The translations under genes and the position numbers were made by a program. This document shows, one piece after another, positions 1 through 5,179 of a stretch of DNA of 6,336 nt. The notes beneath the pieces were generated by a model. That model was not told the DNA's origin. It searched no databases and was given only the letters and a program-made list of their open reading frames with translations. Source of the stretch: a virus (Duplodnaviria; Heunggongvirae; Uroviricota; Caudoviricetes); IMG/VR virus record IMGVR_UViG_3300029749_000251, positions 1-6,336 of that record. One strand, given 5' to 3'. Numbering within the stretch: position 1 is the stretch's first letter; each line of letters starts with the position of its first letter.

Positions 1-699
1 ACTTCAGCGGGTAGTCATCAAACTCACCATAACGAGCATCGTTGATGATGTATGCGATCACCACAAATATCACATCTGGACTAGTTCCGTCTTCATGCGC
101 AGGTATCTGTTCACGCCTCCCTTTCTGCAAATCCTAAAGATGAGATTTTGGGGTTTTGGGATATCTTTTTCTCCTCAGTTCTCTATCCATTCTACAAAGC
201 AGTAATGAACCATCACTATGTGAAAGTGAGGCATCCGCTACATTAAGCGCAGAGAAATGATGCAGTGGTGGGCGGACTGGCTTGATGAAAAGGTGGAGTG
301 AACCACCTTAGCTATCGAATGACACAAAGCCTTGTAATCCAGTGCAAAGTCTTGTGTGCCTCAGTTTTGTCTAAGCGTTCTACTGAAACATAGTAAAATC
401 GATAACGGCTGGAGATCATTCAATATCCGCACTATTGACTCCCCTCCAATAAACCGTGTAACGTACACCGTTTATAAGACAACCAAACAATAATAGAGCG
501 AGTGAAATCATCAGTCTCAAATACCATTTATTGACGCAATACTATCCAGTTCTGAACTAAATGACATAATTCGGTAATTAAATTAATGCATCGACATACC
601 TTATAGATACGCCCCAATAATATAATGCTAATCCTCTTTGAATAGAAAACGTTCAATACTCCTCACTAAATAGCATAGTATTTATATCTTCCCTTACAA

Positions 700-891
700 A
701 AAAAATTAAGGCATAATAATAAGCTTCCTTTAACGCTAGATATTGAGGTTTGTATGTATCGCAGCATCGCAGCATTTAACACATTTTGCTTTTCATTGGT
801 ATTTATTTCATTAGCAAATGATATATATTACCAATTAAAACACTCGTCATCTCTCAATACATATATTTCCTATGCATTTTGAGGGATTGCC
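700..891 (+). promoter_or_regulatory. AT-rich upstream/promoter region and RBS of the membrane-protein gene
   Basis: GAGGGA at 881-886 lies 5 nt before the ATG at 892. The preceding DNA is very AT-rich, with A/T tracts and TATA-like hexamers. Short tandem repeats are present (ATCGCAGC x2 at 758-773, TGTA x2 at 751-758). The exact -35/-10 could not be assigned confidently. Confidence 0.4.
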
Positions 892-1971
892 ATGACATAC
901 AATACTATATTCAAAATATACATCTCAATTTTCATTTCTGTTATTGTCACTATAATAGCCATATCCGGTATAACATTCCTGGGGGACAACTGGATTATTC
1001 CAGACACATATCATCTATTTAATACTGCAAAATATGATACCACATTTTCACTCAGCGATATTTATTCCCAGCATAAAACATCTGTTTTATTTCTCTTTAT
1101 AAACAAAGTGCTCTATAGCATAGGGTTATATTCTTTCTGTATCGCGAACACAGCAATGATTATCTATGCTTTTTTCAAACATCACGAAGACCGTAGATTT
1201 TGTTTTGTGTTTTTGGTTTTGTCACCTCTATTTTTCATTAATATACCGTTACCATCCAAAGATATAATGGTGACATTTCTTTTTTGCATATGGGTATATG
1301 CAGTTTACTCTGAGGCAAGCCTGACAAAAACAATCCTGCTGTCTTTAATCATCCTATTAGTTAGAGATGGCTTTGGGATAATTTTAATTGCCACTTCAAT
1401 TATCTTAAAACAAAAGATAATATATAAAGCACCAATACTACTGATTATAATAGCAACTCTCATCGCATCTTTAATATCGGATGTTTTGCCTAACTATGCA
1501 AATGACTTTTTTCTGTTCCAGAGAGTAATTGATATAGCCAATGAATATAATAGTTCAAGTTATATTCTTCGTATATTTGGGAATGTAACAAATTTCTCAT
1601 CACGCAACCCATTGATTACTGATAAGTCCACATTAAACATTACATTTATGTGCTATACAATCACGGGAGTTACTATATTGAGTACATTCCTTCTTTCAAT
1701 TAAAGCAATACGTTCAAATTATAAAAGTGATGTCAGAATATCATTTTGTTATTTTTTAATTACCATTGCTTTTTCTATTTCACCACTTATTCAAGCAAGA
1801 TACATGGCTCCGTTAATTTTAATGCCGACATTTTATAAGTGTATTTCAAAAAAAGATGTCTTTATTTGCTATATGGCAAGCATATTTATCTCAATAATAT
1901 TATCATTATTATATGTATATTTAGGTGTTTACCCTGAAAAAGCACCAGTGGAAAACTTTACAATAAATTAA
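892..1971 (+). CDS. Polytopic inner-membrane protein, probably horizontally acquired surface-polysaccharide modification function (Wzy/EpsG-like polymerase or serotype-converting transferase candidate)
   Basis: 359-aa ORF with a good RBS. The translation is dominated by I/L/F/Y-rich hydrophobic segments consistent with about 9-11 transmembrane helices. Very low GC and AT-rich codon usage are typical of wzy/gtr-type cargo genes. It occupies the position that the serotype-specific gtr gene (yfdI) holds in CPS-53, but is shorter and has no gtrA/gtrB upstream in the window. Function is inferred from composition and topology only. Confidence 0.75.
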   Translation: MTYNTIFKIYISIFISVIVTIIAISGITFLGDNWIIPDTYHLFNTAKYDTTFSLSDIYSQHKTSVLFLFINKVLYSIGLYSFCIANTAMIIYAFFKHHEDRRFCFVFLVLSPLFFINIPLPSKDIMVTFLFCIWVYAVYSEASLTKTILLSLIILLVRDGFGIILIATSIILKQKIIYKAPILLIIIATLIASLISDVLPNYANDFFLFQRVIDIANEYNSSSYILRIFGNVTNFSSRNPLITDKSTLNITFMCYTITGVTILSTFLLSIKAIRSNYKSDVRISFCYFLITIAFSISPLIQARYMAPLILMPTFYKCISKKDVFICYMASIFISIILSLLYVYLGVYPEKAPVENFTIN

Positions 1972-1990
1972 CAAGAGAAAACCACCTATG

Positions 1991-2036
1991 GCACCATCTC
2001 ACAATAATAATATGATAAACATATTAGAGATGGTGC
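1991..2036. repeat. Perfect 10-bp inverted repeat (GCACCATCTC ... GAGATGGTGC) with a 26-nt AT-rich spacer, in the intergenic gap between convergent genes
   Basis: Read directly: 1991-2000 is the reverse complement of 2027-2036. No U-tract follows on either strand, so it is not a classical intrinsic terminator; it may be a protein-binding site or a weak bidirectional stop. Confidence 0.5.
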
Positions 2037-2683: not shown

Positions 2684-3009
2684 TATGCAGCCCTCACAAT
2701 ATAATTAAAGGCGATGTTACGTGGACGGTTTTCATTAGCTGTTGGCACGACACGAGAGGCGTCGAATCCAAGGTCATCGGTTTTGCCTATAGCAGTTGTG
2801 TTATTCGCCATTGTCGTTGATCGTGTTCCTGCATCGTAAAAAGCCCCTCTGATTGCATCAAAAGACATGCCGATCCCGCCATCTGCGAATCCCTCAATAT
2901 TTCTTATTGCATCCCCCTGTGAAGATAATAATTGTCGCCCGGCATCCACACCACGTCCGTCATCCCAGCCACGAATAAATTCACCGCGTAAAGTCGCACT
3001 CGAAGAGCA
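2683..3009 (-). pseudogene. 3' remnant of a side tail-fibre (Stf) gene: only the C-terminal ~108 codons, bounded upstream by an in-frame stop
   Basis: The translation ends ...FDASRVVPTANENRPRNIAFNYIVRAA, the conserved C-terminus of lambdoid side tail fibres, and contains LRGEFIRGWDDGRG (tail-collar-like motif) near its 5' end. Reading upstream in the same frame hits a stop at 3010-3012, and the sequence beyond is not fibre-like. No ATG is present; the listed start at 2949 is a GTG. Confidence 0.8.
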
Positions 3010-3191
3010 TCAGCCAACTGTTTCCTGATTTTTTCAGGTAACTCGTCGGCATCGCAGAAACAACAACGCTCGATCATGTTGAAAGCCGATTCGTAGAACT
3101 GTTTTTGCTGAGTGTCGCTGAGACAGGAAAAGAGCGACGTTACGATGATTTTATTAATTGCATTATCAAGTTCTTTTTCATCAAAAGTCAT
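2904..3191 (-). CDS. Small hypothetical protein (95 aa) with a Cys cluster (CCFC); its 3' end reads out of frame through the tail-fibre remnant (chimeric or truncated)
   Basis: ATG at 3189-3191 is preceded by AGGA at appropriate spacing on the minus strand. The N-terminal ~60 aa are encoded by unique DNA (3012-3191), while the last ~30 codons overlap Stf-remnant DNA in another frame, so the native C-terminus is likely lost. I recognise no family. Confidence 0.4.
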   Translation of the reverse strand: MTFDEKELDNAINKIIVTSLFSCLSDTQQKQFYESAFNMIERCCFCDADELPEKIRKQLADALRVRLYAVNLFVAGMTDVVWMPGDNYYLHRGMQ

Positions 3192-3444
3192 TTGATTTTC
3201 CTTTTATGTATACGGGCTTAAAAGGATACCACCGAGCCTGAAGTGGTGAAAAGACAGGCACATAACAGCTAAGTATTTTCAACCAGAGAGAATCCTTAGC
3301 GTTGTGGTGAATGCGGCTCAGCGTACGCGGGTTAAGGTTGAGGCTGACAGTCGACCTTCTGTGGATACCCACCCGCCTGGTGTGCAACCTTCGCCAGGCA
3401 CCGGGAGGCACCCGGCACCACAACTTTATGCTGTGTGTAGTCTT

Positions 3445-3491
3445 GGCGGTACCAGCTTGTACCCTTGCTTCCGGCTGGTACCGTCCTTTTT
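3445..3491 (+). terminator. Terminator-like hairpin: 10-bp perfect stem (CGGTACCAGC / GCTGGTACCG) followed by CC-TTTTT
   Basis: 3447-3456 pairs perfectly with 3474-3483, extendable by G-U/G-C pairs at 3445-3446 with 3484-3485. The loop is 17 nt. A T5 run lies at 3487-3491. Three GTACC copies, two of them full GGTACC palindromes (3448-3453, 3459-3463, 3477-3482), allow mutually exclusive alternative pairings. Confidence 0.35.
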
Positions 3492-3704
3492 GCAAAACAG
3501 AGAAGAGCATCACCGGACGACGGGCTCATAACCCAATCCATCCGGGCGGCTGCCACCGCAGGTGTTCTTCTCTGTTTTGTGGAGAAACTAACCGCCCCTA
3601 CGGGGGCATTTATGGAAATGTAATTGACTCAATAATCGCCGGACGGTGAGGGCTTCCTTTTACCCGAATTCAGCGCGGTGCAGCGCATATACGTGGAGAA
3701 CAAA

Positions 3705-4241
3705 ATGTCATTTATTAAAACTTTTTCCGGGAAGCATTTTTATTATGACAGGATAAATAAAGACGACATCGTTATTAACGATATCGCGGTTTCCCTTTCA
3801 AATATCTGTCGCTTTGCAGGACATCTTTCACACTTCTACAGTGTCGCCCAACATGCGGTGCTTTGCAGCCAGCTGGTGCCGCAGGAATTTGCTTTTGAAG
3901 CGTTAATGCATGATGCAACAGAAGCGTATTGCCAGGACATCCCCGCACCACTGAAACGACTTCTTCCTGACTATAAACGGATGGAAGAAAAAATAGACGC
4001 CGTAATACGTGAGAAATACGGGTTACCTCCTGTTATGAGCACGCCAGTGAAATATGCCGATCTCATTATGCTGGCAACCGAACGCCGCGATCTCGGGCTT
4101 GATGATGGCTCTTTCTGGCCTGTACTGGAAGGTATCCCGGCAACAGAGATGTTCAAAGTGATTCCACAGGCACCGGGCCATGCCTACGGGATGTTTATGG
4201 AACGTTTTAACGAGTTATCGGAGTTACGCAAATGCGCATGA
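3705..4241 (+). CDS. yfdR: HD-domain phosphohydrolase, YfdR-like 5'-deoxynucleotidase (178 aa from the ATG at 3705; the ORF track starts at an upstream GTG at 3678)
   Basis: The HD signature (…H…ALMHDATEAY…) is visible in the translation. GGAG at 3695-3698 lies 6 nt before the ATG at 3705, whereas the GTG at 3678 has no RBS. The length (178 aa) and operon context (followed by 120-aa and 101-aa ORFs, then an Xis-like gene) match my recollection of CPS-53 yfdR-yfdS-yfdT. Identity to K-12 YfdR was not verified by alignment. Confidence 0.8.
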   Translation: MSFIKTFSGKHFYYDRINKDDIVINDIAVSLSNICRFAGHLSHFYSVAQHAVLCSQLVPQEFAFEALMHDATEAYCQDIPAPLKRLLPDYKRMEEKIDAVIREKYGLPPVMSTPVKYADLIMLATERRDLGLDDGSFWPVLEGIPATEMFKVIPQAPGHAYGMFMERFNELSELRKCA

Positions 4242-4594
4242 ATGTTTTCGAAATGGAAGGGTTTCTTCGTGGGAGATGTGTACCGCGAGATCTGAAAGTA
4301 AATGAAACAGATGCTGAATACCTGGCGCGTAAATTCGATGCGCTTGAAGCTAAATGTGCAGCACAGGAAAACAAAGTAATACCAGTGTCAGCTGAACTGC
4401 CACCAGCAAATGAAAGTGTTTTGTTATTCGATGCTAACGGAGAAGGCTGGCTAATTGGCTGGCGTTCTCTCTGGTACACCTGGGAACAAAAAGAAACCGG
4501 AGAATGGCAGTGGACATTTCAGGTCGGGGACCTTGAAAACGTCAATATCACTCACTGGGCAATAATGCCAAAAGCACCGGAGGCTGGAGCATAA
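4232..4594 (+). CDS. yfdS: Small phage-associated protein (120 aa), YfdS-like, possibly DUF551 family
   Basis: Its start overlaps the yfdR-like stop (ATG 4232 versus TGA 4239-4241), with GGAG 8 nt upstream. Length and position match yfdS as recalled. The Trp-rich C-terminal segment (…WRSLWYTWEQKETGEWQW…THWAIMPKAP) is consistent with my memory of DUF551. Confidence 0.7.
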   Translation: MRMNVFEMEGFLRGRCVPRDLKVNETDAEYLARKFDALEAKCAAQENKVIPVSAELPPANESVLLFDANGEGWLIGWRSLWYTWEQKETGEWQWTFQVGDLENVNITHWAIMPKAPEAGA

Positions 4595-4899
4595 TGATCA
4601 CTTTTACCGACAAAGAACTGATTAAAGAAATTAAAGAGCGTATCAGCAGCCTTGACGTGCGAGACGATATTGAGCGCCGTGCTTATGAAATCGCACTCCT
4701 ATCGCTGGAAGTAGAACCAGATGAACGCGAAGCTTATGAATTATTCATGGAAAAGCGTTTCGGTGACTTAGTAGATCGTCGGAGAGCAAAAAACGGCGAT
4801 AACGAATACATGGCATGGGATATGACTCTCGGTTGGATCGTCTGGCAGCAACGAGCTGGTATCCATTTTTCAACAATGTCACAGCAAGAGGTGAAATAA
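4594..4899 (+). CDS. yfdT: Small hypothetical protein (101 aa), YfdT-like
   Basis: TAATG stop/start overlap with the preceding gene, with GGAG 5 nt upstream. The translation is charged and helical-looking. Length and position match yfdT as recalled. Confidence 0.65.
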   Translation: MITFTDKELIKEIKERISSLDVRDDIERRAYEIALLSLEVEPDEREAYELFMEKRFGDLVDRRRAKNGDNEYMAWDMTLGWIVWQQRAGIHFSTMSQQEVK

Positions 4900-4948
4900 T
4901 GGAGCCATACAGCCTCACACTCGATGAGGCCTGTTCATATCTGATAGA

Positions 4949-4972
4949 GCCGCTATATGGCGGTTTATTTTT
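4949..4972 (+). terminator. Candidate intrinsic terminator of the yfdRST-like operon (short GC stem followed by a U-rich tract)
   Basis: GCCGC (4949-4953) pairs with GCGGT (4960-4964) around a 6-nt loop, followed by TTATTTTT (4965-4972), 50 nt downstream of the yfdT-like stop. The stem is short, so this is weak to moderate. Confidence 0.35.
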
Positions 4973-4987
4973 GCCTGGAGAATTAAG

Positions 4988-5179
4988 ATGACCGATACCA
5001 GCCTGATTCCTGAGAAAGAAGTGATGAACAAGCTCGGTGTTTCATCACGTCAGACAATCTGGAACTATACCAAACGGCACGGATTTCCGAAGCCAGTCAG
5101 AACCCACCCCAAATCATACCTTCGTGAAGCTGTTGAGGGGTGGATTCTTAACGGTGGCGTTAATCAGAAATGCTCCTGA
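4988..5179 (+). CDS. AlpA/Xis-family small DNA-binding protein (prophage excisionase / transcriptional regulator)
   Basis: 63-aa ORF with GGAG 7 nt upstream. The translation (…KEVMNKLGVSSRQTIWNYTKRHGFPKPVR…YLREAVEGWI) fits the AlpA/Vis/TorI-type winged-helix pattern (hydrophobic-x-x-hydrophobic, TGLSRSTIY-like, FPKP). It occupies the position of torI/ypdJ in KplE1. Confidence 0.8.
   Translation: MTDTSLIPEKEVMNKLGVSSRQTIWNYTKRHGFPKPVRTHPKSYLREAVEGWILNGGVNQKCS

Follow-up and report, generated by a model that had tools for sequence, protein, structure and literature searches.

The window (i.e. the whole stretch of 6,336 nt that was analysed) is identical to a segment between dacD and sbcB in E. 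coli strain BE2-5 and is a decayed prophage; the structured RNA treated here belongs to the early-left region of this SfV/SfII/e14-type lambdoid element. Two separate parts of the early-left region of SfV (L001) match it at 98%: window positions 2990-3605 correspond to L001 3791-4406, and 3594-4934 to L001 5699-7039, with the start of the homology (2990) falling inside the end of orf33. Following these two separate matches, the window copy has lost the repressor gene cI, PL, most of orf33 (the first PL gene) and orf32-orf31. Positions 3200-3700 find a match in 3007 of the 5426 complete E. coli genomes, and a scan of the window for tRNA and tmRNA genes gave none.

The features of the locus are collected in Table 1. 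The left side of the window (1-2000) is AT-rich and carries a multi-pass membrane protein ORF of 359 aa without a Pfam match. RefSeq has a shorter hypothetical protein within the span of this ORF, which is probably prophage cargo of the serotype-conversion or O-antigen type. The 95-aa ORF, which has a good ribosome-binding site and is transcribed away from the structured RNA described below, occupies the position of ymfI in e14; it belongs to no Pfam family, and SfV has the first 200 nt in common with it but carries no annotation there. The palindrome that is the subject of this study lies in the gene-free block that follows. The sequence-only reading had called this block ORF-free, which holds in so far as no coding signature is found there, but mechanical ORFs do cross it and RefSeq labels it a 'frameshifted hypothetical protein'.

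Table 1 Genes and predicted RNA features of the window, in map order
Feature	Position	Strand	Description and basis
Membrane-protein gene, 359 aa	892-1971		first of the gene order in the left part
Tail-fibre assembly gene and tail-fibre fragment		-	after the membrane-protein gene
95-aa ORF	2904-3191	-	last of the gene order in the left part
Gene-free block	3192-3704		between 95-aa ORF and yfdR
Inverted repeat TCCTTTTA/TAAAAGGA	3199-3226		8 bp, perfect, around a GTATAC centre; between the divergent 95-aa ORF and RNA
Small hairpin CCACCGAGCCTGAAGTGG	3228-3247		from 3229 on, most E. coli copies are conserved
STnc100/PasD-family RNA, predicted extent	3262-3491	+	about 230 nt; Rfam match, ends deduced from the e14 homologue
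P0 hairpin GCUAAGUAUUUUC/GAGAAUCCUUAGC	3268-3300	+	inverted repeat and fold; adjoins the core on its 5' side
Multi-helix core closed by P1	3301-3424	+	GUUGUGGUG (3301-3309) with CACCACAAC (3416-3424); Rfam structure line
Family signature CACCGGGAGGCACCCGGCACCA	3399-3420	+	P6 hairpin and P1 3' strand; exact 22-mer
Single-stranded linker with conserved UUGCUGUGUGUAGUCUU	3425-3444	+	candidate seed; position of the PasD seed UGUGAG
Terminator hairpin	3445-3485	+	13-bp stem 3445-3457/3473-3485, 15-nt loop (RNAfold)
U-run	3487-3491	+	C then UUUUU; predicted 3' end T3491
Second structured element	3492-3580	+	Y-shaped, 20-bp basal stem; directly after the terminator
Small GC hairpin	3593-3608	+	junction (3594-3605) of the deletion relative to SfV; orf32, orf31 lost
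yfdR (HD domain)	3705-4241	+	RefSeq annotation of the identical locus, Pfam
DUF551 gene	4232-4594	+	yfdS in the order yfdR-yfdS-yfdT-xis; RefSeq, Pfam
yfdT	4594-4899	+	RefSeq annotation of the identical locus, Pfam
AlpA/Xis-like gene	4988-5179	+	RefSeq, Pfam
Integrase gene	right end	-	after the AlpA/Xis-like gene

The arms of the palindrome, CGGTACCAGC (3447-3456) and GCTGGTACCG (3474-3483), make up a perfect inverted repeat of 10 bp whose halves stand 17 nt apart, and TCCTTTTTG follows. In the predicted fold the stem extends to 13 bp with an energy of about -22.4 to -23.0 kcal/mol (z = -4.3), a stability equalled in 0 of 200 shuffles, and its pairs have a probability of 0.999, also in the context of the full RNA. 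The proposed long stem followed by a U-tract is thus borne out, and the U-run exists only for the plus strand, there being none after the hairpin on the minus strand. The three GTACC motifs on which the element was said to be built are present as well (at 3449, 3459 and 3478, being three of the five copies in the window), while the hexamer GGTACC occurs at 3448 and 3477, 29 bp apart. Because GGTACC is itself palindromic, any copy in one arm of a stem must recur in the opposite arm, and the only independent GTACC is the one in the loop, at 3459. At least one perfect 10-bp repeat is also found in 10.8% of dinucleotide shuffles of the window, which makes the repeat by itself only mildly unusual; the significance of the hairpin rests on the extension of the stem, the U-run, the z-score of the fold and the conservation.

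A consensus terminator scan missed this hairpin because it allows loops of 3-8 nt only, whereas the loop is 15 nt in the window, 18 nt in e14 and about 35 nt in ST64B. In terms of the usual features of a Rho-independent terminator, a GC-rich stem stands directly before a U-run on the transcribed strand, but the loop is not short (about 3-8 nt). Intrinsic terminators typically have a shorter loop than this, and with a U-run of only five U the efficiency of termination may be partial.

Covariation in the stem was counted over 12 homologues and compared with 500 shuffles and with slid registers. Five of the 13 pairs show double compensatory changes and 91.7% of the cells pair, a percentage that none of the 500 shuffles reaches (nor do any reach the covariation score, while a single one reaches five double-change pairs); the slid registers give 24-55% paired. 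In ST64B (GUCGGCGUC/GACGCCGAC) and in the viral contig L087 (GGCGGCACC/GGUGCCGC) both GGTACC hexamers have been lost through paired substitutions with the pairing kept. The loops of e14 and phiNP are unrelated to that of the window, and CTTTTT is invariant across all aligned homologues.

Outside this group of close homologues, the same position is taken in other subfamilies by unrelated GC hairpins with a T-run, e.g. GCCCCTCTCCGGAGGGGC, GCCTGC...GCAGGC, GGCCGCCGATTGGCGGCC and GCCCGC.... A strict terminator (a hairpin with 7 bp or more and a T4, no farther than 110 nt from the core) is present in 57% of 103 non-redundant family members, versus 2.1% of random windows; a permissive detector gave 97% of members but also 44% of controls, and was therefore discarded for the stricter rule. 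The strictly defined terminators have 25 distinct 8-nt stem starts. In phiES15 the sequence switches to another terminator (GCCCGC) exactly at window position ~3443, and in mEp460, cdtI and Stx2c phages only 3443-3605 is shared, the GGTACC terminator there standing behind a core that has diverged but retains P1. The family thus swaps its terminators as modules, with their position kept.

The family in question is STnc100 (RF02076), a prophage sRNA of gammaproteobacteria, of which the complete model (positions 1-206 of 206) matches window positions 3271-3494 with 42.3 bits (E 8.3e-7), the Rfam alignment placing the hairpin on the terminator stem of the model. The score does not reach the gathering threshold of 47 bits; for comparison, PasD1 scores 37.7, SfV 39.5 and e14 29.2 bits. 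The closing helix, the GGUGAAU 5' motif and the CACCGGGAGGCACCCGGCACCA 3' motif are all present (3301-3312, 3399-3424), as is an intrinsic terminator (3445-3485 plus U5) 25 nt after the core. The signature 22-mer, which is identical to the Rfam consensus, is found exactly in more than 120 viral contigs. The RNA of the window is therefore a new member, scoring below the threshold, of the STnc100/PasD family of sRNAs, which is already known; its terminator is an ordinary one, and the palindrome is very probably the Rho-independent terminator that forms the 3' end of this RNA.

With the STnc100 model the RNA shares, besides these motifs, the location in a lambdoid prophage. It differs in the second helix (GCGGC...GCGCACGCGG, versus CCCCC...GGGG in the model), in the extra 5' hairpin P0, which stands where a proximal promoter would, in the terminator loop (22 nt versus 5 in the model comparison) and in its place in an early-left operon, away from stx, Q and lysis genes. 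A 2026 preprint from the Storz laboratory (10.64898/2026.05.13.724894) relates STnc100 to PasD1/PasD2, which in EPEC E2348/69 are Hfq-dependent sRNAs validated by Northern blot, Hfq dependence and RIL-seq (PMC8550237). PasD1/PasD2 (EcOnc13 in EHEC), with a length of about 173 nt, have the same layout of a core, a single-stranded seed (UGUGAG) and a terminator with a U-run. Unlike the window RNA, PasD lies between Q and the holin gene and starts at P1, directly after its own promoter; it has a degenerate core motif, and both seed and terminator differ in sequence. The window RNA has neither the location between Q and the lysis genes nor a promoter of its own at P1.

Within the RNA, P1 is a 9-bp perfect repeat, the outer pairs of which covary over 23 diverse members (UA/CG/UG/GC and GC/AU). 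Since the MAFFT alignment was poor in the variable middle of the family, only P1, the second helix and the P6 hairpin can be assessed across subfamilies. The equivalents of P0 differ in sequence between relatives (GAUAAGAG/CUCUUAUC in ST64B, UGAAGCGCAUU/GAAUGCGCUUCA in phiES15). The linker motif UUGCUGUGUGUAGUCUU, on the other hand, is kept just 5' of the terminator in SfV, e14, ST64B, phiES15, phiNP and the contigs L019, L057 and L067, and is conserved even where the terminators differ. By analogy with PasD, the linker may serve as a seed, and it is plausible that the RNA acts in trans as an Hfq-dependent sRNA that uses it as such.

Term-seq of K-12 (PMC7815308, supplementary file 1) lists RNA 3' ends at 1201423(-), 1201257(-) and 1201195(-) of MG1655, all in the e14 homologue, the last of these standing later in the file than the sheet for LB at OD 0.4. 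With 1201195(-) the e14 transcript ends on the final T behind the hairpin, the equivalent of T3491 in the window, so that an RNA 3' end on the U-run is on record for the e14 homologue only. The end at 1201257(-) corresponds to A3428, just after the core, and that at 1201423(-) to C3261, inside a conserved stretch (AAAAGACAGGCAC followed by AUAACAGC), from which A3262 is taken as the matching 5' end; this 5' end would be made by cleavage at about 3261/3262. In principle, the e14 3' end may also stem from exonucleolytic trimming back to the hairpin instead of termination. The proposal that the element defines the 3' end of a plus-strand small RNA is supported by the STnc100 match together with this coincidence of the e14 end with T3491.

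In K-12 the annotated gene ymfH overlaps the degenerate copy of the RNA (e14, L002 4039-4267, equal to window 3261-3491; its score is the one given above for e14). Together with the three 3' ends, this points to an e14 RNA of about 228 nt that has escaped annotation, with a possible 3' fragment of 62-63 nt that comprises the linker and the terminator. Conceivably, though with low probability, the region of ymfH encodes an unrecognised K-12 sRNA of e14 of which the active species is the 63-nt 3' fragment (seed UGCUGUGUGUAG plus terminator).

As for the operon in which the module resides, PL lies just downstream of the repressor gene (cI) in SfV, e14, mEp460, ST64B, phiNP and phiES15, next to OR-operator-like repeats, and in SfV it contains a strong promoter (TTGACA-16-CATAAT, L001 3401-3428). 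The operator-like repeats and the SfV promoter together give the early-left order PL, orf33/ymfJ, RNA and terminator, second structured element, orf32...yfdR...xis-int, with orf33/ymfJ being absent from ST64B. The distance from PL to the module is about 0.85 kb in intact relatives, and the delayed-early genes come after it. As proposed, the element also precedes the HD-domain (yfdR) genes, in that the terminator stands between upstream transcription and 3705-5179.

The following sequence of events is proposed. Transcription would produce P0, the core (GUUGUGGUG/CACCACAAC), the single-stranded UUGCUGUGUGUAGUCUU stretch and the terminator, in that order, after which the 13-bp GC-rich RNA stem and the U-run would release RNA polymerase at about T3491. 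In the intact relatives (SfV, SfII, SfIV, e14, ST64B, phiNP, mEp460 and phiES15) the module is part of the PL operon, after the immunity region, and from this early-left position it follows that the terminator would both end the accumulating short transcript and bar PL transcription, which would then have to read through it in order to reach orf32...yfdR...xis-int. The window copy, having lost PL, would presumably still be transcribed. A scan for plus-strand promoter-like sites in 2900-3800 found none, including between the terminator and yfdR. The best candidate by eye for a promoter of the RNA itself, AAGACA-17-TATTTT (3251-3279), was rejected, as it has 8 of 12 matches and is conserved neither in the L012-type flank nor in phiES15. 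The window copy may be poorly expressed or a silent relic.

The arrangement resembles that of the lambda tL1-type terminators, in which an intrinsic terminator likewise follows the first PL-proximal gene and precedes the delayed-early genes, xis and int; the difference is that SfV-type phages have no recognisable N. Indeed, no N is annotated in phages of the SfV/e14/ST64B type, and SfV orf33 was rejected as an N-like candidate, being an acidic protein without an arginine-rich motif.

In other STnc100 subfamilies the RNA starts 7-9 nt after a strong TTGACx-17-TAAATT promoter, with Q upstream and a holin gene 250-300 nt downstream, an arrangement (Q, promoter, RNA, holin) that is seen in the viral contigs L014, L028, L035, L069, L072, L088, L119 and others, and that equals the position PR'-6S RNA-tR' in lambda. 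One subgroup of the family has no terminator and runs on into a conserved CCTGGTAAATCGGTAGCTCGGAC. Lambda 6S RNA (PR'-tR') and StxS are short phage transcripts that are ended by a terminator through which lytic transcription reads, and StxS of Stx phages reportedly doubles as an Hfq sRNA. Many STnc100-family copies stand at the same position (Q, promoter, RNA, terminator, holin); the window copy, in contrast, is in a PL operon instead of a PR' operon, and the family is not known to be homologous in sequence to 6S RNA or StxS.

It could be argued that the RNA is not mainly a trans-acting sRNA, but that its conserved body has a cis-acting role towards the transcribing polymerase or an antiterminator of the phage (as put or nut/qut sites have), the terminator being the regulated element of the PL operon and, in other subfamilies, of PR' operons. 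Family members are found after the TTGACx-17-TAAATT promoter between Q and holin, or in a PL operon without an annotated N, and nearly always directly before a terminator that lytic transcription must pass, which fits such a role. However, the RNA occurs with lambda-, 82- and 21-type Q as well as downstream of stxB (PMC12370729), so that no single antiterminator goes with it; convergent terminators face some of the copies, as is the case for free-standing genes, and PasD acts as an Hfq-dependent trans-acting sRNA (PMC8550237). Likeness to the put RNA of HK022 does not extend beyond both being structured RNAs in early operons of N-less lambdoid phages. PutL (72 nt) was rebuilt from the HK022 genome (L009) and checked against the residue numbering of PMC9378689; the window RNA has neither sequence nor structural likeness to it, the two-stem consensus of put being absent and no shared motifs being seen by inspection. 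The blastn homologues of putL are in HK75, O276, phiEt88, HK639, CobraSix, S9-5 and PdC23, none of which is SfV-type. Moreover, putL is promoter-proximal, whereas the SfV RNA lies about 640 nt downstream of PL. A primary action in cis is on these grounds quite unlikely. Its wider form, in which core and terminator are a portable cis-acting gate cassette, used at the heads of PR' operons and in N-less PL operons, and the trans-acting sRNA is a by-product, is likewise regarded as unlikely.

A separate observation concerns the region right after PL, where SfV, e14, ST64B and phiNP have a conserved leader of about 70 nt in common, despite different immunity regions. It lies outside the window (L001 3440-3510, L002 3285-3350, L005 2670-2735, L007 2350-2415) and consists of AACAGGCAGGACGCCCACGAAGTAGCCGCC, a covarying 5-bp hairpin (CCUGG/CCAGG, CCGGU/ACCGG, CCCGG/CCGGG) and then AUGAUUCG. 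This leader is a candidate for an antitermination or processing site in phages without N, although it is not convincingly put-like.

Whether the palindrome acts as a switch depends on the shorter hairpin that was proposed to exclude the long stem. Such a hairpin is predicted, though one base off from where it had been placed, as GGUAC pairs at 3448-3452 (not 3449-3453) with GUACC at 3459-3463. As an attenuator or antiterminator it would form early, block the long stem under some signal and permit read-through into yfdR, and in agreement with this it is predicted to arise transiently in the nascent chain, at a stage when the 3' arm has yet to be transcribed, the two structures are mutually exclusive and the downstream genes appear to depend on read-through. 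At -5.5 versus -22.4 kcal/mol (i.e. 17 kcal/mol weaker) it has, however, an equilibrium probability of about 5e-10, and it shows 0 compensatory changes, while its 76.7% pairing is reached by 93 of 500 shuffles and hence is that of the shuffled controls. Its loop GTACC is absent in e14, phiNP, ST64B and L087, and the commonest E. coli allele, GTACAC (39 of 117 copies), loses the outermost of the five pairs and keeps four. A search of the window against the Rfam cis-regulatory families, with E up to 1, gave no match and no candidate sensor. The attenuator architecture of the sequence-only reading thus finds no support and a regulated switch is very unlikely, while the short hairpin may have a small kinetic effect on termination efficiency in some alleles.

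Another explanation would be that the block is coding, with ymfH-like ORFs at 3304-3531 and 3311-3649 in which the palindrome is incidental. Apart from the existence of such mechanical ORFs, this can appeal to RefSeq, which places ymfH over the e14 homologue and the 'frameshifted hypothetical protein' in the window locus. The substitutions relative to ST64B, phiES15 and e14 are nevertheless spread evenly over codon positions in all three frames, the indels measure 1, 1, 20, 7, 2 and 2 nt, and the length and frame of the ORFs vary among near-identical copies; in addition, the ymfH-like ORFs have no Pfam match and no gene is annotated at the RNA in ST64B, phiNP or SfV. All that a literature search for ymfH returned was a mention of an intE-xisE-ymfH operon and the assignment of the gene to the YmfT iModulon. 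A coding origin is accordingly considered highly improbable.

Finally, that the two GGTACC hexamers, 29 bp apart within the perfect 10-bp inverted repeat, form a DNA-level site for a repressor, a recombinase or a component of a restriction-modification system, as the alternative proposal of a protein recognition site held, is barely credible, as ST64B and L087 retain the stem without the hexamers, other subfamilies have entirely different GC hairpins at the same position, the T-run is strand-specific and invariant, and the e14 RNA 3' end maps to the hairpin; the GGTACC motifs carry no meaning of their own.

Reading the palindrome as the terminator of an STnc100-family RNA explains a structured, gene-free block of more than half of the complete E. 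coli genomes, which is labelled 'hypothetical protein' or ymfH in RefSeq and which Rfam-based annotation misses because its score is just under the threshold. It also means that in SfV/e14-type prophages, which are without a known N-like antiterminator, a barrier separates the xis/int-proximal genes from the immunity region. The modular exchange of terminators at a fixed position is useful for setting sRNA boundaries in prophages, although the practical value is modest.

The structure in this part of the operon continues beyond the terminator. The second structured element (-58.5 kcal/mol, z = -6.9) has been kept in e14, mEp460, ST64B and phiNP, where a few of its pairs show compensatory changes, and always accompanies the GGTACC terminator as the module 3443-3605. 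It resembles a structured 5' UTR belonging to the first of the delayed-early genes, or possibly a site for RNase III. As to the deletion junction, orf32 and orf30 of SfV are each preceded by an identical short GC-hairpin sequence, and the two places are joined in the window locus, SfII and SKA5. Intact relatives additionally carry matches to the C4 antisense RNA and IsrK, above the Rfam threshold, near antirepressor genes (L001 1255-1443, L004 324-512 and L005 409-597, outside the window), and these phages therefore carry several structured regulatory RNAs.
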